Shown here piece by piece: positions 6,545-55,611 of a stretch of 64,000 nt of DNA. Under the pieces are notes generated by a model. It worked only from the letters and a program-made list of their open reading frames with translations, made no database searches and had not been told where the DNA came from. The DNA is taken from assembly GCA_021414225.1 (NCBI GenBank), contig JAIOOX010000001.1, forward strand, positions 6,624-70,623, given 5' to 3'. How positions within the stretch are numbered: position 1 is the first letter of the stretch; every line of letters begins with the position of its first letter. This DNA is from Candidatus Vogelbacteria bacterium. Its GTDB lineage: Bacteria; Patescibacteriota; Minisyncoccia; Phycocordibacterales; XYD1-FULL-46-19. The position numbers and the translations under genes were made by a program.

Positions 6545-7318
6545 TTATTGGCGCTTAATTCTAAAAGTATTGGCTCGAGGATAGAAATCAACGTATTCTG
6601 GAGTTTTGGTCAAAGCTTGAGGCCAAGTAAAATACACATCTTTAGTTTGGCCACGACCCAAATCTTGGATCAAAGTCGCACTCCCAGTAAAAGCGTTTTG
6701 TTGACCATCAGACACAACCACCGGCACGACAATATTTTCCAAATCGTAATTTGATTCATTCGTCACCAAAGCATGAAGCTTCGGTGTTTCATCTGCAAAA
6801 TTAAATTCTTTTCTAGTCACAGATAAAACTGGTTTAGCAATCTCTGGTTTATCCCAACCAGTATCACTCGTAAAATCAATAAAGGCCCGTAAAGCAATCT
6901 GGTTGTCAGTATTAATATTCGGTTCAAAAATAACAAACTTTTCTTGAGGATTAACGAACACCTCTCCCTTCCTGGTCGCCACCGTTGCGCCGAGGTCATT
7001 TGTTAATTTAATGGTGTAAAAAAGACGATCCACTCCCAAGGATCGATTTTGATTCTCAAACAAACCCATCACACTATAAGTACCAGCCACAATCGAAAAT
7101 GGCCTAATCCATAAAGTTTGAGTTGGAATAACTTCACTGCGACAAACCTTAGCACAAGGACCTCCACAATCTATTCCAACCTCTTCTTGATTTTGCCGAC
7201 CATCAGAACAAGTTGGTAGCGGTTTGGTATACCAATAACCAAAACCAGTCACTGCGACTATAAAAATAATCACTCCCAATAAATAAGCTAGTTGTCGGCG
7301 TCGGTTCCAAGATAACAT
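6545..7318 (-). CDS. Hypothetical membrane-anchored protein (CxxC-containing)
   Basis: Start moved to the internal ATG at 7318 (MLSWNRRR...). It is followed by a single TM helix and an extracytoplasmic domain. The longer ORF-track start would run into the tRNA. Confidence 0.45.
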   Translation of the reverse strand: MLSWNRRRQLAYLLGVIIFIVAVTGFGYWYTKPLPTCSDGRQNQEEVGIDCGGPCAKVCRSEVIPTQTLWIRPFSIVAGTYSVMGLFENQNRSLGVDRLFYTIKLTNDLGATVATRKGEVFVNPQEKFVIFEPNINTDNQIALRAFIDFTSDTGWDKPEIAKPVLSVTRKEFNFADETPKLHALVTNESNYDLENIVVPVVVSDGQQNAFTGSATLIQDLGRGQTKDVYFTWPQALTKTPEYVDFYPRANTFRIKRQ

Positions 7319-7562
7319 TAGGTCTATGGTACCAAAAATCCCACCCTCTGGCGAGGATGGGATTTTTGATTTTAAGTTTTTGAATACTCTGTTCCGGCGA
7401 CAAGCTACTCTCCCGCATAGCAGTACCATCGCCGCTACGGTGCTTAACTTCTCTGTTCGGAATGGTAAGAGGTGTGACCACCGCGCCAAATCGCCGAAAC
7501 AGAACATTCAAACGCTTTTGAAAACTGTGATGGAAAGCCAACATAAATGTTGGCGAAAAAAT

Positions 7563-7639
7563 TGGAGCGGATGGTATGGGACTCGAACCCACGTCTCCTT
7601 ATTGGCAATAAGGCACTCTACCAACTGAGCTAACCCCGC
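7563..7639 (-). tRNA. tRNA-Gly (anticodon GCC)
   Basis: Minus-strand cloverleaf:
- D-arm GCTC/AGTTGGTA/GAGT
- anticodon loop TTGCCAA between CCTTA/TAAGG stems
- T-arm GTGGG/TTCGAGT/CCCAT
- encoded CCA and discriminator U
The 3' acceptor strand carries 2 extra nt (a non-canonical bulge). Confidence 0.75.
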
Positions 7640-7707
7640 CCGAAAAATTTTAGGGATATCCCATCACAATTTTCAAACTTTAGGTAAAACACTAAATTAA
7701 ATTGACT

Positions 7708-7765
7708 ACTCCGACAAATTAACTTGTCGGAGCGATTTGTAAAAATTTTAATTTTTACAAATCGC
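7708..7765 (-). other. Two adjacent perfect hairpins between the 23S 3' end and tRNA-Gly (processing or termination structures)
   Basis: H1: ctccgacaaattaacttgtcggag. H2: gcgatttgtaaaaattttaatttttacaaatcgc (14-bp stem). Confidence 0.5.
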
Positions 7766-7790
7766 ATGATTTTTAAATTTCCTAATAGGA

Positions 7791-10810
<3,020 letters not shown>

Positions 10811-11109
10811 TTTCCTATTAGGAAATTTAAAAACCATGTTTACAATTTTAGCCCTGTAACAATTTTATTTGTTACAAGTTTTGATTTAATGCTTACCTAT
10901 CCGCCTCCAGTATGGCAAAGACCCCAATTAAATTGGATAGCCATAAAGTGACGGGATTCAGTTATCAATGTTCCGATTCTTGGCTGAAAAAATTAAACCG
11001 CCTGTCAGGCGGATTTTAGGCACCTATGCAAAAAGCAAGAGTCCTTTAACCCGCGTGTTTTTGGTTTAATTTGATAATCATACTGACGCTCGTTAGTATA
11101 TACCCCACA

Positions 11110-11861: not shown

Positions 11862-11990
11862 AATATTCTAAAATAAAACTGTTATTGATAAAACGACCTA
11901 AAACTAATAATAAGTTACACCTACAATTATACCACGATTAGACCTTTTGCGGGGGGTAATGTGGATAATAATTAGCACAACTTAATCTCA

Positions 11991-22257: not shown

Positions 22258-22795
22258 AAATAAATAATATGTGAACTAATAATTTTAATTAACTAATCAA
22301 CCTTTTTATACTTCAAGACTTTACTGATTGTTTCCAATCTCAAATCCCAAAGTACGCACCATCTCAACTTTCGACGGTTTGACATAGTGCAGTTTGATTT
22401 CGATTTTTATTAACCTTGAACTACCTACTCCGCATTATATTAATGGTGCGTTTTGACAGCCAAGGGTTAATAAACAAAAGGGAAGAAATCTGATCGGCAG
22501 ACAGATAGATCGTGACGGAATTTATTTTTAACCTTATTTAATTTTCAAAGTTCAGTCAGCCGGACAACTAGCGACCAGATTACAACGTCAAAGATTATTA
22601 TACTATTGTCCAGCCTCACCCACCAAATTGATGGGCTTAATAATGTGGATAAGTAACAGTATTTTGACTCTGACGATCTCTGGAGGTTGTTTATTTTCCA
22701 CCAGTTCTCAGGCTCTAGTTTAACCTAAAATGGTCAAATAGTCAACGAAAACGTCTCCCTTTGCCCTAGACTTGAACACATGAAAATAATTATTT

Positions 22796-26337: not shown

Positions 26338-27372
26338 ATGATCAAGAAAAAACAATCTGCCCCCAAAGAAACCAACACCGGTGTTGATGATGCTATTAAA
26401 GCGATTCAATCTCGTTTTGGTGACGAATCTATTATTAAACTTGGAGAAAAACCAAAAGTGGGAGTTAATGCTATTCCAACCGGCTCTCTAGGTTTAGATT
26501 TAGCCCTCGGTATTGGTGGTGTGCCTCGCGGTCGGATCATCGAGATCTATGGCCCAGAATCGTCAGGTAAGACTACCCTCGCCCTTCACATCATCGCTGA
26601 GGCTCAAAAACACGGCGGTGTGTGTGCTTTTATTGACGCTGAACACGCTCTCGATCCTGAGTATTCAAAAAAAATTGGCGTAAAGATTAATGACCTTCTA
26701 GTCTCCCAACCAGATTATGGTGAACAAGCCTTGGAGATCTGTGAAAGTTTGATCCGCTCGGGTAGTATCGATGTTATCGTTATTGACTCTGTAGCCGCTC
26801 TCACCCCTAAAGATGAGATTGAGGGTGATGTTGGTGCTCAACACATGGGTAAACAGGCTCGTCTAATGTCTCAAGCTCTCCGTAAAATGACTGCCATTGT
26901 CGCTCGATCTAAGACTGTTGTTATCTTTATCAACCAAATTCGAATGCAAATCGGAGTAATGTTTGGTAATCCAGAAACTACCCCTGGAGGTAAGGCTCTA
27001 AAGTTTTATTCCTCTGTTCGTCTAGATATCCGCCGCATCGCTCAAATCAAGAAAGGTGAAGATGTTGTTGGCGGTCGAGTAAGAGTCAAAGTGGTCAAGA
27101 ACAAGGTCGCTGCCCCTTTCAAACAAGCAGAATTCGATGTTCTTTATAATGAAGGAATCTCCCCAGAAGGTGAAGTGCTAGCTTTGGGTGAAAAATATGG
27201 CATCGTTAAAAAAGCTGGTGCGTCTTATAGCTACACCCCCGAAGGTAAGGATGAGGTCAAACTCGGACGAGGTTACGACGCGGCTCGCACTTTTGTCAAA
27301 GCCGACCCTAAATTAAAGAACGAGTTGGTGAAGAAAATTAATGAAGCTTGGGGTAAAGAAACCCTTGCTTAA
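26338..27372 (+). CDS. recA: Recombinase RecA
   Basis: Walker [10 protein letters not shown] and the RecA signature [14 protein letters not shown]. 344 aa. Confidence 0.95.
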
Positions 27373-46789: not shown

Positions 46790-46916
46790 AACACCCAGAC
46801 TTGTTTTGAGACTTTATTTGTTTTCTAAAATACCACCCTCCCCCAGAAAGCCTTGCTGCCAAAAGTCTGAACCAGTCCAATTAAGATACCTAGTCATTTT
46901 TTCCGAATGTGGATAA

Positions 46917-48550: not shown

Positions 48551-49567
48551 TTAACGCAACTCCGGATAGACAGTGTAAATAGCTTCTACCACTTTTTGTT
48601 TAGCTTCTTCGTTGGTGCCTTGAATCAAGGCCCCTGCTGCCGGTTTGTGGCCACCGCCCCCCAACAAGGAGGCTATTTTTGATACATCAAAACCACTTCT
48701 TTCTTTAACGCGAAAACTAATCCGGTTAAAACCTTCTTCCTTTTCAATTATTGAGATGCCAATATTCCAGCCTTTCACTGTAATCAAAGTGTTAGGCAAA
48801 CCTTGGTTTTTAATATTCTCTTCTTTAATTTCGTGCTGTTTTAATAGGCTATAAGGAATACTAATAATTGCCACTTGATCATGGCCAAACAATTCAATAT
48901 GTTCAAAAGCCATCGCCTTAAAATATAATTGCTCTGGTTCTAACTGATCACTAATAGCCGAGATAATAGCTGTAAAATCGGGATAAATTTCCACTAGCTT
49001 GGCCGCTATTTCAAAAGTTCGACTAGTGGTCGCCCTAAACCGAAAACCACCAGTGTCATAGTACATCCCCACCAACAAACAAATCGCTATATCTGGCGTA
49101 ATGTTTATTTGTAACTCTTCAAACAAATCATACAAAACTTGAGCTGTCGCTGGATAACCAGGCTCTATTAAATTAATCTGACCATAACCAGTATTGGTCG
49201 CGTGGTGGTCAATCACAATAGTTTTTAAATGATCAGGGAAAACTACCTCTTGTAGTCTGGTCACCATAACTGGTGCACCACTATCGAGAATAATAAATAG
49301 ATCAAATTGACTTAAATCCATTTCGCCAAAATTCTTATCAACTATCTCAGCCCAGCCAGGCAAGACAGATAGGTTTTCTGGTTTAGGAGAATCTCCACCA
49401 ATCACCACCACTTCTTTACCTATCCCTCTAAGGGCGTGATACACAGCCAAAGAACTGCCCACACTATCGGGATCGGGACTAGGGTGACAATGCAACAAGA
49501 TTCGTTCCGAGTTATCTATCGCCTCTTTGATTTGCGGAGTTAGTTGTGGAATGATAACGCTTTTCAT
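48551..49567 (-). CDS. nrnA: DHH-family phosphoesterase (NrnA-like oligoribonuclease / pAp phosphatase)
   Basis: DHH motifs (HCHPSPDPDSVGS, DHH at VIDHHATN) and the DHHA1 C-terminal GGGGH motif (LLGGGGHKPAAGA). Confidence 0.8.
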   Translation of the reverse strand: MKSVIIPQLTPQIKEAIDNSERILLHCHPSPDPDSVGSSLAVYHALRGIGKEVVVIGGDSPKPENLSVLPGWAEIVDKNFGEMDLSQFDLFIILDSGAPVMVTRLQEVVFPDHLKTIVIDHHATNTGYGQINLIEPGYPATAQVLYDLFEELQINITPDIAICLLVGMYYDTGGFRFRATTSRTFEIAAKLVEIYPDFTAIISAISDQLEPEQLYFKAMAFEHIELFGHDQVAIISIPYSLLKQHEIKEENIKNQGLPNTLITVKGWNIGISIIEKEEGFNRISFRVKERSGFDVSKIASLLGGGGHKPAAGALIQGTNEEAKQKVVEAIYTVYPELR

Positions 49568-49569
49568 TT

Positions 49570-50076
49570 TTATTGTTTTCTTAAATCTTCAATGTTTTTA
49601 GTTAGGATTTCGATTTGTTTCTTAATCGTCTCCAAAGTCGCCACCGTCATATCTTCAATCTCATCATCCTGTTTTTCTATTTCATCCACATCTTGTTGAA
49701 TCTCGTCAACATTGTGTTGAATTTCATCCACATCTTGTTGCATCTCATCAACATCTTCTTGAATAGTATCAACTCCTGCTTGAATCTCCTCAATATCTTC
49801 TTCTACTTCTTCCAAACTAGCCGTGTTTCGATTAACAGTCATTTGAATGAAGATGGCTAAATAAATCGCCTCCAAAGAAACAATGGTCGTTAACACTAGT
49901 AACACCCGATCCCAATTAACACCTAGCAAGCCCAATAAAAAAGCTGAAATAAACAAGGCAGTATGAACAGCTAAGGATTCGGTTGAACCAATCCAGGCAG
50001 TCGCTTTGGTGGAAATTTTTTCCAAATTAAACCTTTTATTCTTTTTTGATTTTCTTTTTTTAGACATTGCCGTCAA
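49570..50076 (-). CDS. DUF1003-like membrane protein with a repetitive acidic coiled-coil C-terminus
   Basis: Two TM helices with WIGSTESLAVHTALF...NRN (DUF1003-like), then heptad repeats DVDEIQQ/DVDEMQQ/NVDEIQQ. Confidence 0.5.
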   Translation of the reverse strand: MTAMSKKRKSKKNKRFNLEKISTKATAWIGSTESLAVHTALFISAFLLGLLGVNWDRVLLVLTTIVSLEAIYLAIFIQMTVNRNTASLEEVEEDIEEIQAGVDTIQEDVDEMQQDVDEIQHNVDEIQQDVDEIEKQDDEIEDMTVATLETIKKQIEILTKNIEDLRKQ

Positions 50077-50115
50077 ATATACTCACCAGTAGGAGTCCAG
50101 TATTATCAATTAGTA

Positions 50116-50523
50116 TTACTTTCCTTTGTTAACAAATTTTTCGAGAGTGTAACGACCAGCGCCAGCACAGATAACTCCAATAGAAGCCAACAACAAAACT
50201 AAATCCAACTCATAACCACCATTACCATAACCCATTCCCCCTTTAATTTTAGTGATCGCCCCCACCATAATAAACACAAAAAGCACCGCCACTGTCTGAG
50301 TAGCCACTCCTGCAATCATCAGCAAGCCACCCACCAACTCAATTATAGCCACCGACCAAGCCAACCAAGCTGGTAAATTGATTGAAGCAAAAAAAGCGAC
50401 CGTTGCCCCCATATTCATAAGTTTAGTTGCTCCGTGATACACAAAAGGGATACCAACCGTTAGACGTAGAGCCAACAAACCTAAAGCGGGATTGTCAGTA
50501 TAACTTTGAATGCGTTTCAACAT
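50116..50523 (-). CDS. DoxX-family membrane protein
   Basis: 135 aa with four TM helices and DoxX-like GIPFVYHGATKL. Confidence 0.65.
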   Translation of the reverse strand: MLKRIQSYTDNPALGLLALRLTVGIPFVYHGATKLMNMGATVAFFASINLPAWLAWSVAIIELVGGLLMIAGVATQTVAVLFVFIMVGAITKIKGGMGYGNGGYELDLVLLLASIGVICAGAGRYTLEKFVNKGK

Positions 50524-50630
50524 AGGAAAGAAAATAAATTTAGTAATTACTAATTATAATAACACTTTATAGATTCAAACTCCAAAGGCGGGACTTAAAA
50601 AGCCCCGCCAACCTTACTCGCACCAAAGAA

Positions 50631-50906
50631 CTATGTCCGTCTTTTTTTATTAAACATTGCCATGTCTACAGCAATATTTACAGCCTCCCAAGATTTTATT
50701 TTATTGGACTCCAAATGCCGACGGTAATGTTGAGAATACAACTCCCTCCTAATCAACTGCCCGCACAAGTTACAAAGAAAACAACACGGCTCTGCCCAGT
50801 GCAGACAGTTTGGTCGGTCAGAAAACCTGTGACAACAGCAGTCACACACCTCCTCCGGTAAACAATCAAACACTAACAAGCGCCCTTCATAATGAGTGGT
50901 ACACAT
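50631..50906 (-). CDS. Small Cys-rich protein with a C2H2-like zinc-finger motif
   Basis: 91 aa with 12 Cys. Includes CNLCGQLIRRELYSQHYRRH (C-x2-C-x12-H-x3-H). Confidence 0.45.
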   Translation of the reverse strand: MCTTHYEGRLLVFDCLPEEVCDCCCHRFSDRPNCLHWAEPCCFLCNLCGQLIRRELYSQHYRRHLESNKIKSWEAVNIAVDMAMFNKKRRT

Positions 50907-50971
50907 AAAAAAATCCTCCCATTTCTCTTCCTTTATTTAGAATACGCCCAACCAAACACCTAAGTCAAATA

Positions 50972-51451
50972 CTAGTGGCAAACATTTAAACCTCTCTTCA
51001 TTAAATACTTCTGGTGATAGTCTTCGGCCGGATAAAAAATTTCAGCTGGTAAAATTTGAGTGGCTACGCGATCGGCCAGCTTTCCCGATTCATCTAACCC
51101 TTGTTTCGATTGTTCAGCCAAATCCCGTTGCTCTGAAGTATGGTAAAAAATAACTGAGCGATATTGCGTTCCAGTATCCGGACCCTGACGATCAATTTGG
51201 GTCGGGTCATGGTTCTCCCAAAAAACTTTTAGTAAACTCTCGTACTTAATCTTGGTTGGATCATAGGTAAGATGCACCACTTCAACATGACCAGTCTCAT
51301 CGGTACACACTTCTTCATAAGTCGGATTAATCTTATCACCACCCATATAGCCCACAGCGGTCTCGATGACTCCTGTCAAAGTTCTGAAGGTTTCCTCCAC
51401 CCCCCAAAAACAACCAGCCCCAAAAGTCGCTTGTTGTAAGTTTTGTTCCAT
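50972..51451 (-). CDS. msrA: Peptide methionine sulfoxide reductase MsrA
   Basis: Active-site GCFWG motif ([13 protein letters not shown]). Confidence 0.9.
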
Positions 51452-51481
51452 TAGTTAATTATACCACCCTGGTCAATAACC

Positions 51482-51928
51482 CTATCCAGCGTGATGATAG
51501 CCCTCGCCTTTGATTATAGTGAGTGATCGATAGACTTGCTCGGCCACAATTAGACGAACAATCTGGTGCGGGAAAGTTAGTTTACCTAATGACCATACAA
51601 TCTGACCTTTCTCTTTTACTTTCTTATCAAAACCATAAGCCCCACCAATTATAAAAACCAGGCGTTTATCACTTGACCCCATTCTTTCGTTCACTAATTC
51701 AGCTAATTTCTCTGACGAATAATTTATCCCTTCGTCGTCGAGTAATATACAAAAGTCGCCAGGCGCTAAAATAGACAAAATTTTTGAGCCTTCAGTTTTA
51801 GGATCGCTAGTGGGAATAATTTTCCAGTCAATCTGTGAATAATTTTTTATCCGTTTGGTATATTGTTCAATTCCCTCTCGAATAATGTCGTCGTGTTTCT
51901 TGCCGATCGTGATAATTAGAATCTTCAT
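51482..51928 (-). CDS. rlmH: 23S rRNA (pseudouridine1915-N3)-methyltransferase RlmH (SPOUT)
   Basis: MKILIITIGKK..., LVFIIGGAYGF, and the YbeA/RlmH C-terminal motif. Start placed at the internal ATG. Confidence 0.8.
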   Translation of the reverse strand: MKILIITIGKKHDDIIREGIEQYTKRIKNYSQIDWKIIPTSDPKTEGSKILSILAPGDFCILLDDEGINYSSEKLAELVNERMGSSDKRLVFIIGGAYGFDKKVKEKGQIVWSLGKLTFPHQIVRLIVAEQVYRSLTIIKGEGYHHAG

Positions 51929-51965
51929 GCCGAATATTATAACAAACTTTGTTTGGGTGAAGTAC

Positions 51966-52023
51966 AAAAAAAACAGAAACCCCACCAGACCGAGAGAGCG
52001 GGGCTCTGTTTGGTCTGGTGGGG
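51966..52023 (-). terminator. Strong rho-independent terminator after the lexA-operon accessory gene
   Basis: ccccaccagaccgagagagcggggctctgtttggtctggtgggg, followed on the minus strand by a U8 tract. Confidence 0.75.
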
Positions 52024-52024
52024 A

Positions 52025-52468
52025 CTAAGTTTGACTTGGTGTAGTAATTTGTTCACTTAGAAAAAAGAACTCCTCCGGAACTTCGAAAATTACGCACCTG
52101 GCCTTACCTATGGAACCCAACCCCTGCAACCAGGCTTCGCCTGTGAGCCACTGATAGTCTTCAAGCCGTTTGAAACGGTAGGTGACAAGTCGTGGCACAC
52201 GTTCACACTGGGCCTCAAACTCAAGGGTGCCCGAATCGAGGTCCAAGAGGACTTTTTCGATAAAACAGACACCTCTCTCTTCACGCAATCTACCGGTAAT
52301 GGCACCCTCAGCACAAACTTCCAGGAGTCCACTGAAGTGATTACCCGCCAAATCAGGGTCAAGGATGTTACGCGGCCCCCCTTGACCTGAGTTGGCCAGA
52401 TCGATTTTTAATGCCCCAGGAACGAGAAAACCTTTCAAAAAGAAATATCGATTACCCAAATTTATCAC
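52025..52468 (-). CDS. Hypothetical protein, GC-rich, co-operonic and downstream of lexA (candidate SOS-induced effector)
   Basis: 147-aa ORF about 56 nt downstream of lexA, before the terminator. Local GC is clearly higher than the genome background. No confident family assignment. Confidence 0.5.
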   Translation of the reverse strand: MINLGNRYFFLKGFLVPGALKIDLANSGQGGPRNILDPDLAGNHFSGLLEVCAEGAITGRLREERGVCFIEKVLLDLDSGTLEFEAQCERVPRLVTYRFKRLEDYQWLTGEAWLQGLGSIGKARCVIFEVPEEFFFLSEQITTPSQT

Positions 52469-52527
52469 CCCCTTTCTAATGAGATGTTCGGTCTGAAAAC
52501 ATTACTACCAAAAACAGGTTAGAAAAG

Positions 52528-53094
52528 CTAGTACTTACGAATCACCCCTTTCACTACTCCACCAATCGTTAAGGATTGTTCTGGATAGATCGCTTTAAAA
52601 TCTTTGTTAGCTGGTTCGAGCCAGGATTTACCGTTTTTAGTTTTAAAATATTTCATCGTCCATTCGCCGTCCACCTCAGCTATGACAATATCACCATCAC
52701 TAGCTCTATTGGTCTTCTCGACAATCACCATATCACCATCAGCGATATGCGCGTCGATCATCGAGTTCCCATCTACCTCTAGTAGATAGGTTTTCTCTTT
52801 TTTCTCGATCATCAAATCATCCAGACTAATACTATCAAGCATCGCTTCCTCCGCCATCGCCGGAAAACCAGCAGTCACCGAACCAAGTAAAGGTACTTCG
52901 CCAAAAATTTTATTTGGCAACAACTTCCCTTGGTTATCTTTAGTTACTATCCCCGCTTCGATCAACTTCTCTACCAAGCGATAAGCCGCATTAGAAGATT
53001 TGAATTGTAGCAGTGTCGCTATCTCGCGATACGACGGCATGCGCTTGTGCGTCCGATAAAAGTCTAGAATTTTGTTTTTGTATTGTTCAAACAT
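52528..53094 (-). CDS. lexA: LexA repressor (S24 peptidase)
   Basis: N-terminal wHTH, an Ala-Gly cleavage site (VTAGFP), and a catalytic Ser (GNSM) and Lys (WTMKYF). Confidence 0.9.
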   Translation of the reverse strand: MFEQYKNKILDFYRTHKRMPSYREIATLLQFKSSNAAYRLVEKLIEAGIVTKDNQGKLLPNKIFGEVPLLGSVTAGFPAMAEEAMLDSISLDDLMIEKKEKTYLLEVDGNSMIDAHIADGDMVIVEKTNRASDGDIVIAEVDGEWTMKYFKTKNGKSWLEPANKDFKAIYPEQSLTIGGVVKGVIRKY

Positions 53095-53298
53095 TTAGAA
53101 TAAGAAAGTAGAGACTAAACGAAAAGCCCGTGGCCAAAAATAAGACTTGGTACTCATTCGTCTCATTTGGGTAAGTAGTTGGCGGTGGCGACGGGCGTCA
53201 TCGTGATAATCCAAACCAGTAATAATTTTAACGTCGATCTCTTTGTTAAGCTTGGAGAGCTCTCGCTCGATAGCTTGTCTGTATTGATTGTGATTCAT
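53095..53298 (-). CDS. Small hypothetical protein encoded immediately upstream of lexA
   Basis: 67-aa ORF from the internal ATG (MNHNQYRQAIERELSKL...). The longer ORF-track start would include the LexA box, so the shorter start is preferred. Confidence 0.4.
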   Translation of the reverse strand: MNHNQYRQAIERELSKLNKEIDVKIITGLDYHDDARRHRQLLTQMRRMSTKSYFWPRAFRLVSTFLF

Positions 53299-53336
53299 AG
53301 TGATAATAAAGGTTAAACTTAATATCACTAGTTTAA

Positions 53337-53352
53337 GTGAACAAACGTTCAC
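53337..53352 (-). promoter_or_regulatory. Candidate LexA operator (Cheo-box type GAAC-N4-GTTC)
   Basis: A perfect 16-bp palindrome GTGAACAAACGTTCAC lies about 40 nt upstream of the small-ORF/lexA operon, overlapping a TTGTTC -35-like element. Confidence 0.6.
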
Positions 53353-53376
53353 CGTCAATAATTTCCTTGGGGATAA

Positions 53377-55119
53377 CTAAACTCGCTCGCCTGTTTGCTC
53401 ACGCCACATCGCATAGTACAAACCTTTTTGCGCCACCAACTCTTCGTGAGTACCAGACTCACAAATCAACCCTTTCTCTAAAACATAAATCCGATCAGCG
53501 TGCATGATAGTCGACAAGCGGTGAGCAATCATGATCGACAAGTGTTCTTTGGTTAGGGATAACTCCCGGACAGTTTTAGTAATCTCTTCTTCGGTCAGCG
53601 AATCAAGGGCAGAGGTGGCTTCATCAAAAACTAGGATTGTCGGCTGACGCAGTAGAGCTCGAGCGATTGATAGTCGCTGTTTTTCACCACCAGAGACTTT
53701 CACCCCACCTTCCCCAATCAGAGTATCTATCCCCTTGTCTGCCCGAGCTAACAAATTCTGACAGGCACTTTTTTGGAGCACGGTCATTATCTCCTCATCG
53801 GTCGCTTTTGGATTCACAAACAGTAAGTTGTCTTTAATACTGCCAGCAAATAGTTGAGTGTCTTGGGTGACAAAACCAATTTGAGAACGGAACTCCGTGA
53901 AGTCTATTTCGCGTGAAGCAATATCGTTGTAATAAATTTCTCCACTATCCGACTGATACAAACCAACCAATAATTTCACCAGGCTAGTTTTACCCGAACC
54001 AGATGGTCCTACAAATGCAATGCTCTCACCTTTGGTCATACCAAAAGAAATATCTTTAAGGGCTTGATTGGTAGCTGATTGATAAGCAAAAGAAACATGG
54101 TCGAAAGTTAGTTTTTCAACTCGACCAAGCGGCTTAGGATTAGCTGGTACCACCTCTTTTGGTATTTCTAAAATTTCAGCAAACTTACGAAGTGATACTT
54201 CAGCTTCGCGATAACTGTTGATCACCCCTCCCATTTCTTGAAGCGGGTTAAAGACAAAGAAAGAATAGATGAAGAGTGAGAAGAATTCTCCAAACGTAAT
54301 AGTTTGGGTGTACATTAAATACAGCATGAAAAACAAAATCGAAGTCCGTAAAAAGTTAATCAAAGTTCCTTGAACAAAACTTAAACTGCGCACATAGCGT
54401 AACTTTTTTAGTTCTAGATCAAGAATTTTTTCCGTCGTCGTATTGAGACGATTGATCTCTTGATCCACCAAACCTAAACTTTTGACCAATTCAATATTAC
54501 GCAAAGACTCTGTCGTCGAACCAGCCAAGGCGGTCGTCTCTTTCATGATATCTTGTTGCACTACTTTCAACTTCCGACTCAGCACATAACTGATCCCTCC
54601 AATAATTGGGACAGTCAAAGCGTAGGCCAGGGCCACTCCCCAATAAATACTGATGGCGTAGATGGCGATAAAAGTGAACCCGATCAACGACACGAAAACA
54701 ATATTAATAATCGCAGCGATAAACTTTTCGACGTCGCCTCGCACTTTTTGGAGTAAACCTAAAGTCTCCCCACTACGCTGATCTTCAAATACCGAATAAG
54801 GTAGACCTAAAGTATGTTTGACCCCATCAGCATACAGCTCCGCTCCCACTCGTTGAGTGACAGTATTCAGGTAATAGTCCTGAAAATTTTTGGCGACTCG
54901 TGACACAAAAGCCACACCGATCATGGCCAACATTAACCATAACGCTCCTTGCAAAAACTCGGCCTTGGAATACTGGTCAAAATTGGTTGTGTAACCATCT
55001 ATCACGTGCCTAAAGATCAGTGGGTCAAGTAGTGAGAAAATCTGATTAATCGAGGCTAAGACTAAAACCCCCAAACACACTCGCCAATATTTTTTTAAAT
55101 AAGATAATAATAATTTCAT
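53377..55119 (-). CDS. ABC transporter, fused permease/ATP-binding exporter (MsbA-like)
   Basis: Six TM helices at the N-terminus. C-terminal NBD with Walker A GPSGSGKTS, signature LSGGEKQR and Walker B ILVFDEATS. Confidence 0.85.
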   Translation of the reverse strand: MKLLLSYLKKYWRVCLGVLVLASINQIFSLLDPLIFRHVIDGYTTNFDQYSKAEFLQGALWLMLAMIGVAFVSRVAKNFQDYYLNTVTQRVGAELYADGVKHTLGLPYSVFEDQRSGETLGLLQKVRGDVEKFIAAIINIVFVSLIGFTFIAIYAISIYWGVALAYALTVPIIGGISYVLSRKLKVVQQDIMKETTALAGSTTESLRNIELVKSLGLVDQEINRLNTTTEKILDLELKKLRYVRSLSFVQGTLINFLRTSILFFMLYLMYTQTITFGEFFSLFIYSFFVFNPLQEMGGVINSYREAEVSLRKFAEILEIPKEVVPANPKPLGRVEKLTFDHVSFAYQSATNQALKDISFGMTKGESIAFVGPSGSGKTSLVKLLVGLYQSDSGEIYYNDIASREIDFTEFRSQIGFVTQDTQLFAGSIKDNLLFVNPKATDEEIMTVLQKSACQNLLARADKGIDTLIGEGGVKVSGGEKQRLSIARALLRQPTILVFDEATSALDSLTEEEITKTVRELSLTKEHLSIMIAHRLSTIMHADRIYVLEKGLICESGTHEELVAQKGLYYAMWREQTGERV

Positions 55120-55122
55120 AGT

Positions 55123-55611
55123 TTAAATTTTTATTTGATCCATCCCTCGCCAAACATTGGAAGTGCCAATATCTTGATTGCCGGCGGATTTAACATACAA
55201 AAATAACTGCATTTTATACCCGGCCAGCATAGTTAGAACATTAAGTAAAAATAATCTCTTAGTTTGCTTAGTGCCAAACATTTCCACTTCTTGATCTAAA
55301 TCTTCATCCGTAAACCGATTTAGTAATTCTGTAGTTTCAGCCAAAGACTCGTTCATTCGTTCGTCAAAATTAGCTCGAGTAGTACTCTCTGATTTAGCGG
55401 TATAGGCTCCAAAAACTGAATAATCAACAAGTGATATCATCTTCAACATCGACGGTGTCATAATACTGAGATATTGTAACAACTCTAGCAGGCTTCTTTG
55501 TTTATCAGTTGGCTTGTAACCATCCACACCATCTGGAATCTTACTAGCCAGGTGTTTAATTACATTCACTTCATGACTAATAGCACCCAAAAAATGATCT
55601 TTACTATACAT
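55123..55611 (-). CDS. Hypothetical protein (possible DinB/YfiT-like helical bundle)
   Basis: 162 aa, predicted all-alpha. Weak resemblance only. Confidence 0.3.
   Translation of the reverse strand: MYSKDHFLGAISHEVNVIKHLASKIPDGVDGYKPTDKQRSLLELLQYLSIMTPSMLKMISLVDYSVFGAYTAKSESTTRANFDERMNESLAETTELLNRFTDEDLDQEVEMFGTKQTKRLFLLNVLTMLAGYKMQLFLYVKSAGNQDIGTSNVWRGMDQIKI

Follow-up and report, generated by a model that had tools for sequence, protein, structure and literature searches.

In the SOS response of the Bacillus subtilis type, a self-cleaving repressor of the S24 family (LexA, or DinR) controls its own gene through the Cheo box CGAAC-N4-GTTCG, and GAAC-N4-GTTC is the experimentally established core of Gram-positive LexA operators. 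Small effectors encoded next to lexA, such as sulA, yneA and sosA, are common in SOS regulons. A second arrangement, the lexA-dinB operon of bacteria such as Geobacter sulfurreducens, was reportedly described by Jara et al. in 2003; there, lexA is said to be co-transcribed with a Y-family polymerase under an operator of its own, recA not being visibly controlled by LexA. For the Patescibacteria, the superphylum to which the present locus belongs, a comparative study of the SOS network was made by Sanchez-Osuna, Barbe & Erill in 2017 (Environ Microbiol 19:3465; cited in PMC8565304 and PMC7739468), which probably reports a LexA motif of the present kind for these organisms. Here, we present the computational analysis of a lexA operon from a Candidatus Vogelbacteria bacterium, lying in a stretch of 64,000 nucleotides of contig JAIOOX010000001.1 (assembly GCA_021414225.1, positions 6,624 to 70,623 of the forward strand); this whole stretch is referred to below as the window, and coordinates are counted from its first letter.

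This module is a genuine, conserved and fairly ordinary autoregulated SOS operon of a bacterium of the Patescibacteria (Candidate Phyla Radiation, CPR), and the nearest lexA operons are found in metagenome-assembled genomes labelled Ca. Saccharibacteria. Taking the evidence together, we consider it probable that this autoregulated operon carries a conserved small protein and that its dinB gene has been replaced by an orphan open reading frame (ORF) representing accidental foreign cargo. The operon thereby holds two unknowns, the small protein, which is worthwhile, and the orphan, which is weak. All features of the module (operator, small ORF, lexA, orphan ORF and terminator) belong to the minus strand, where they are ordered 5' to 3' as the TTATCCCCA element, -35, palindrome, -10, 67-aa ORF, lexA, spacer, orphan ORF and terminator:

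53368..53376, minus strand: conserved upstream element TTATCCCCA (DnaA-box-like, TTATCC[A/C]CA), 9 nt upstream of the -35 and present in 14 of 15 aligned related promoters.
53353..53358, minus strand: -35 hexamer TTGACG, from the promoter scan; 14 of the 15 related promoters keep TTGAC, immediately 5' to the operator.
53337..53352, palindromic, no strand assigned: predicted LexA operator, the perfect palindrome GTGAAC-N4-GTTCAC, which takes up the whole spacer from -35 to -10.
53330..53335, minus strand: -10 hexamer TAAACT (TATACT in relatives), from the promoter scan and the promoter alignment.
53095..53298, minus strand: small ORF, 67 aa, a basic protein predicted as a helical hairpin, its C-terminal tail being hydrophobic, from an unannotated family of ~64 aa.
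52528..53094, minus strand: lexA, 188 aa, with TIGR00498 and Peptidase_S24 matches.
52464..52475, minus strand: Shine-Dalgarno-like AAAGGGGGTGAT, its G-run 8 nt from TTG 52459.
52025..52459, minus strand: orphan ORF, 144 aa from TTG 52459 (147 aa from GTG 52468); the NCBI record uses the TTG.
52006..52528, minus strand: strain-variable segment, 523 nt, which includes both the orphan ORF and the terminator's 5' arm; replaced by 20 unrelated nt in the closest relative, contig L016.
51966..52023, minus strand: intrinsic terminator closing the operon, dG -31.7 kcal/mol, z = -6.2.

The preliminary description of this stretch, made from the letters and their translated ORFs, had recognised a compact LexA-controlled module in which a perfect GAAC-N4-GTTC palindrome precedes a 67-aa ORF that abuts lexA, the unit being closed by a strong terminator. 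Each of these elements held up, on the minus strand, which that description had not named: the palindrome lies at 53337-53352 and keeps its position within the promoter spacer in all relatives, the lexA ATG at 53094 comes immediately after the TAA of the small ORF, lexA is complete, and the terminator is as stable as listed above. The assignment of lexA is carried by the LexA equivalog TIGR00498 of NCBIfam (139.6 bits for a cutoff of 110.95) and by a Peptidase_S24 match spanning positions 1-115 of 116 of the model (E = 4e-29), and the translation displays the motifs required for self-cleavage and catalysis, i.e. the Ala-Gly bond (VTAGFP), the serine (DGNSM) and the lysine (WTMKYF), with a spacing typical of S24. 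Comparison of the gene between the window and L016 shows 26 codon changes that are synonymous and 3 that are not. Beyond the close relatives, the next LexA proteins (44-50% identity) come from Deltaproteobacteria, including Syntrophales (L009-L015 and L028-L051), and this close relationship between the LexA of CPR bacteria and of Syntrophales could reflect horizontal transfer of lexA.

The palindrome reads GTGAACAAACGTTCAC on the plus strand (53337-53352) and GTGAACGTTTGTTCAC on the minus strand (53352-53337), and the operator site is the sole perfect 16-mer of the window. Its core, GAAC-N4-GTTC, occurs twice in the 64 kb for 0.93 expected, which is not significant within the window alone, and the case is made by the relatives. 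These were fetched as LexA relatives from genomes and metagenomes and as contigs carrying the small-ORF family, for a total of 273 kb over all loci. The full GTGAAC-N4-GTTCAC is found exactly once per CPR-type locus, at the same promoter position, in 22 related loci (the fetched records that carry the site, several being the same or near-identical contigs fetched twice), for ~0.02 occurrences expected in 273 kb. In the 15 promoters that were aligned, the succession of TTGAC-n, the 16-mer and (c/t)TATACT is nearly constant. More distant LexA relatives, from Syntrophales and other Deltaproteobacteria (44-50% identity), have this core unchanged within TAGAAC-N4-GTTCTA, at positions -44 to -74 relative to lexA; the flanks of the operator thus co-vary with the LexA lineage, as expected of the repressor's own site. 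On these grounds of sequence and position, the palindrome is almost certainly a LexA operator, of a type that is probably already known. With the B. subtilis type, the locus shares the GAAC-N4-GTTC core, the predicted autorepression of lexA and the self-cleaving S24 repressor; it differs by its flanks (GTGAAC...GTTCAC instead of CGAAC...GTTCG), by an operator that fills the -35/-10 spacer, by a recA devoid of box and by the rank of lexA, which comes second in a polycistron, after the small ORF.

Two further observations concern this promoter. The DnaA-box-like nonamer upstream of the -35 may be a site for DnaA or another global regulator; the window holds three further copies of TTATCCACA, at 46908-46916, 22644-22652 and 11960-11968 (-), all intergenic and each upstream of same-strand genes. 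Moreover, a 12-nt exact match, TAAGTGAACAAA, is shared by the operator (53334-53345, plus strand) and the 3' end of the orphan ORF (52047-52058, minus strand), where it forms an isolated LexA half-site; such matches are expected ~0.003 times by our estimate, this one having been noticed post hoc.

The layout suggests the following mode of action. A LexA dimer would bind GTGAAC-N4-GTTCAC and, as the operator occupies the whole -35/-10 spacer in a classic occlusion geometry, would block RNA polymerase, a step drawn from the position and conservation of the site. Upon DNA damage, RecA would stimulate the self-cleavage of LexA and free the promoter, giving a single transcript for the ~64-aa hairpin protein, LexA and the 3' gene, on which LexA is probably translationally coupled given the TAAATG junction. 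This transcript would end at the strong terminator, made of a 12-bp perfect stem (52012-52023 / 51980-51991) and an inner 5-bp stem followed by UUUCUGUUUUUUUU, a fold whose stability was reached by none of 200 shuffled sequences. The downstream gene, rlmH (SPOUT methyltransferase), has its own TATAAT directly before its ATG, which argues that the operon ends at the terminator.

The small ORF, starting at ATG 53298 and stopping at 53095, had been left as uncharacterised in the preliminary description, which missed its conservation; it proves to be a real conserved gene of an unannotated family, a conserved unknown that is more interesting than the orphan. An 87-aa form from an upstream TTG was rejected, this start preceding the predicted -10 and being excluded by the family alignment. 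A profile built from 7 syntenic ORFs recovered 29 proteins of 63-68 aa, plus a few longer calls, with E-values of 1e-22 to 1e-30, and none of these 29 members bears a Pfam domain or a name. Their alignment contains nine invariant columns (M1, N18, I21, I25, G28, Y31, A35, H38 and L41), with the consensus MATTHIAPxLEKRIxELNKKIDSKILRGKSYxxEAREHRALLSxLK....R..FxHSFSFLHxF. Modelled with the family alignment, AlphaFold2 (AF2) predicts an antiparallel hairpin of helices 3-27 and 32-52, with a predicted local distance difference test (pLDDT) score of 80.7 overall and >90 in the helices, ending in a floppy C-terminal tail. The protein is basic (net charge +6 to +8) and its maximum 19-residue hydropathy of 0.23 indicates no transmembrane segment. 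Fold searches with the model returned generic helical hairpins only, none at E <= 0.001, and no significant match came from profile searches of PDB and Pfam. A PADLOC match of the window copy to DruM2 (E = 1.9e-5) was considered spurious, being shared by 0 of 26 other family members.

Within the operon, this ORF sits between operator and lexA in every locus checked. It accumulated 2 synonymous and 0 non-synonymous changes relative to L016, the 78-nt promoter region being identical. In L007, L023 and L027, whose LexA proteins are 50-57% identical, the operator directly precedes lexA and the small ORF is absent, pointing to a clade-specific addition. By its position in the operon, a small gene adjacent to lexA under a LexA operator, the 67-aa ORF (like the orphan) recalls the effectors SulA, YneA/SosA and SidA. 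Examined as an SOS division inhibitor, it nevertheless gave no match to SulA (PF03846), to LysM or to any Pfam or NCBIfam family, and no transmembrane helix; it is a soluble basic hairpin encoded upstream of lexA in the same operon, neither divergent nor downstream, and is not a membrane inhibitor of the YneA/SosA/SidA type. Its linkage with lexA persists without dinB (in the window, L016 and L006), which suggests a function tied to LexA or to the SOS response itself rather than to Pol IV. The conserved tail, [S/L]-F-S-F-L-H-L-F, resembles QL[S/D]LF clamp-binding peptides, a resemblance that we treat only as a lead.

The 3' slot of the operon is where the window departs from its relatives. A Y-family polymerase of 414-447 aa (PF00817/PF11799) follows lexA in L001-L005, L018, L021, L061, L063 and L065, where the order is small ORF, S24 gene and IMS gene, as well as in L007 and L027, and often overlaps the lexA stop codon. 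Most relatives thus have lexA-dinB operons, with PF00817 (IMS) immediately after lexA, and the window does not; this usual content of the slot had been missed in the preliminary description. Neither a dinB gene nor a relic of it was detected in the window by tblastn or by a DinB hidden Markov model (HMM) run on six-frame fragments, and the same searches exclude a decayed dinB behind the orphan segment. We conclude that dinB is the ancestral 3' gene of this operon type, whose position is occupied here by the orphan ORF; with dinB in place, the module would normally tie translesion synthesis to DNA damage. The likeness to the Geobacter-type operon lies in these lexA-dinB relatives and, within the window, in a recA that is not visibly under LexA control. 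By contrast with that type, whose operator motif is given as GGTT-N10-AACC in a passage of PMC8565304, the operator sequence differs, an additional conserved small ORF precedes lexA, and in the window dinB is replaced by the orphan. In two of the loci, a LAGLIDADG-like ORF with a faint Pfam match lies just upstream of the SOS operon (L061, 2930-3541; L062, 980-1645).

The orphan had been described as a 147-aa gene beginning 56 nt after lexA, with a GC (guanine plus cytosine) content far above the surrounding DNA. The ORF is indeed there, but the spacer measures 59 nt if counted to the GTG and 68 nt if counted to the TTG, and contains AAAGGGGGTGAT, the TTG at 52459 (144 aa) being the more likely start over the GTG at 52468 (147 aa). 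Similarly, its GC content is raised (0.48, with a 300-nt peak of 0.54, for a window mean of 0.40 and a standard deviation of 0.034), and ranks among the highest 0.5% of the 444-nt windows that lie outside ribosomal RNA (rRNA); 'far above' is nonetheless too strong, native stretches of the window reaching 0.51-0.54. The best sign of foreign origin is the canonical Shine-Dalgarno site, a 10/11 match to AAGGAGGTGAT at ideal spacing, which is essentially missing in native genes: only 6 of 50 native window genes were flagged for such a site, mostly on G-runs of extended -10 boxes. The raised GC content and this site make the orphan look foreign and, together with its absence from the nearest relative, bear out the horizontally acquired look noted earlier. 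Many native genes of the window have TATAAT or TGnTATAAT within ~10 nt of the start codon, which suggests widespread leaderless or short-leader mRNAs.

Identity between the window and its closest relative, the JGI metagenome contig L016, is 96.5% across the stretch of ABC transporter, small ORF and lexA, and drops to 91% from rlmH on. Lacking the orphan, this sister strain indicates that the orphan is dispensable, and the 523-nt segment has no similar DNA in the rest of the window or in the fetched loci. Of the terminator, L016 also lacks the 12-nt 5' arm but keeps the other one (3'), a pattern in favour of a deletion in L016; a weaker hairpin (-16.6 kcal/mol) nevertheless still folds there from the former loop. 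No LexA relative closer than 66-69% identity, by which this insertion or deletion (indel) could be polarised, was found in the genome or metagenome collections, L059 and L060 being the same sequence as the window. Across 49005-55125, divergence from L016 jumps at the 3' end of lexA, from 1-5.5% in the ABC transporter, small ORF and lexA to 13-14% in rlmH and msrA, and its coincidence with the indel suggests a recombination breakpoint at this place. Between lexA and the orphan, the promoter scan returned no promoter-like site and the folding no stable hairpin, so that the orphan is probably transcribed with the operon and would hence be damage-induced.

Such co-transcription is one argument for reading the orphan as a dedicated damage-induced effector recruited into the lexA operon, a division inhibitor, a toxin or similar, as the preliminary description had suggested. 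No terminator separates the orphan from the LexA-controlled transcript, its ribosome-binding site is strong, and SOS regulons often carry a small effector beside lexA, as with sulA, yneA and sosA. The protein itself does not bear this out. As already noted in the preliminary description, no family could be assigned to it, with no match in Pfam, NCBIfam, PHROGs, PADLOC or PDB, nor any Pfam match in the alternative reading frames of the region; looked at as an SOS division inhibitor, it matched no SulA (PF03846) or YneA/SosA-type domain and, with a maximum 19-residue hydropathy of 0.94, has no transmembrane segment, unlike YneA, SosA and SidA, and PADLOC returned no toxin, antitoxin or defence profile. 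Homologues are lacking in any other SOS operon or elsewhere: searches through 5.8e9 word-indexed clusters and with full HMMER on 1.84e9 representatives (~15 billion proteins) returned only the orphan itself, and viral, phage and plasmid collections returned none. A candidate relative (P0003, E = 7.5e-4) was discarded as a compositional match to a 1143-aa repetitive coiled-coil protein. Moreover, the sister strain keeps the rest of the operon and does without the orphan. We thus judge a dedicated effector unlikely, and retain the orphan as accidental foreign cargo in a variable operon slot.

In an AT-rich genome, a GC-rich island is often an RNA gene, and a 15-nt inverted repeat with 87% complementarity (52041-52055 / 52494-52508) brackets the ORF, while the indel boundary falls inside the terminator hairpin; the segment could in this light be a structured non-coding RNA or an element resembling a miniature inverted-repeat transposable element (MITE), inserted at the lexA terminator. 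We hold this to be very improbable. Rfam, both at the gathering threshold and at E <= 10, identified nothing except the terminator hairpin, ARAGORN was negative and the fold z-score was only -1.4, these three results together discarding RNase P RNA, transfer-messenger RNA or similar. An inverted repeat of such quality is expected ~0.1 times by chance (an estimate), and neither a target-site duplication, nor a second copy in the window or the other 273 kb, nor a match to a transposase family was found; on this chance expectation and the absence of other copies, the MITE reading was rejected.

Several points weigh against the operon as we interpret it, autoregulated by LexA and carrying foreign cargo. 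Concerning the regulation, recA is present in the window (26338-27372, plus strand, with a GPESSGKT motif) and has no LexA box: it follows an ftsK-like gene and a 113-aa ORF, and at 0 or 1 core mismatch no LexA operator was detected upstream of any of the three. The enrichment of the palindrome upstream of DNA-damage genes, expected in the preliminary description, was accordingly not seen in the available 64 kb, where the SOS regulon amounts to one operon. The regulon may be just this operon, and the RecA-dependent induction is an assumption. In addition, the Pfam LexA_DNA_bind model gives a weak match to the N-terminal domain of LexA (17.9 bits for a cutoff of 23.7), and the operator was assigned from its conservation and position only. 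This weak match and the recA without site would fit a palindrome bound by a regulator other than LexA, or a mere conserved feature of the promoter spacer. This alternative appears highly improbable, considering that, wherever a related fetched locus carries the site, it strictly accompanies lexA and stands at that gene's own promoter, that its flanks change with the LexA lineage (GTGAAC in the CPR clade, TAGAAC in Syntrophales) and that its core is the established Gram-positive one; the palindrome is best read as the operator of LexA.

Concerning the orphan, the direction of the indel between the window and L016 is ambiguous and a single sequence is known: the only identical protein record is the NCBI hypothetical protein K8Q91_00305 of Candidatus Vogelbacteria, and the Logan contig L059 is 100% identical. 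No conservation of the 147-aa ORF was found in related genomes, a lack that the preliminary description had named in advance as counting against the gene. Its AF2 single-sequence model reaches a pLDDT of 40, with no confident fold, and only one of the 47 long ORFs that were scored falls below its in-frame codon score of +0.07 per codon. The orphan could thus be non-functional, the 523-nt segment being a decaying relic or foreign junk whose long ORF yields no useful protein, which would suit a singleton without homologue in a segment that L016 dispenses with. Against this reading, a 147-codon ORF is found in only 0.5% of composition-matched random sequences (P ~0.005 for an ORF of this length), the ORF fills the segment, and the 10/11 match to AAGGAGGTGAT stands at the right distance before it. 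Frame 0 scores best of the frames and the frame-specific GC (GC1/2/3 = 0.57/0.40/0.47) is coding-like, and neither tblastn nor the HMM detected a DinB remnant. Non-functional DNA is, in our estimation, a possible but doubtful explanation, somewhat less remote than the effector, and foreign cargo in the dinB slot is the interpretation that we carry forward.

CPR bacteria have tiny genomes with few regulators, which makes each conserved regulatory module informative, and their SOS response may be little beyond a self-regulated lexA (plus dinB) operon. Under purifying selection, the small protein stands out as a concrete candidate SOS factor of a new kind. The orphan is of far smaller importance; it shows by example that a damage-inducible transcript can take in a foreign gene, and nothing indicates that it plays a role. 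Joining both, we tentatively put forward, as a rather speculative extension, that the ~64-aa hairpin protein might be an undescribed SOS component of Saccharibacteria-type CPR bacteria, i.e. a modulator of LexA or RecA or, via its tail, a beta-clamp-binding factor tuning replication or the access of Pol IV, and that the 3' end of the operon might be a swap site where foreign genes can replace dinB and come under damage control.

Elsewhere in the window, the 23S rRNA, 5S rRNA and tRNA-Gly (transfer RNA) genes are grouped at 7392-10820 (minus strand), with an insertion of ~55 nt in domain I of the 23S relative to the Rfam model; the ORFs listed over 6545-7628, which overlap with both the 5S rRNA and the tRNA-Gly, are probably spurious. 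Finally, a cysteine-rich ORF of 91 aa (13 Cys, including CDCCCH; 50631-50906, minus strand), with no Pfam match on record, lies between the msrA and DoxX genes and figures among the called genes of L016, L059 and L060 as well.

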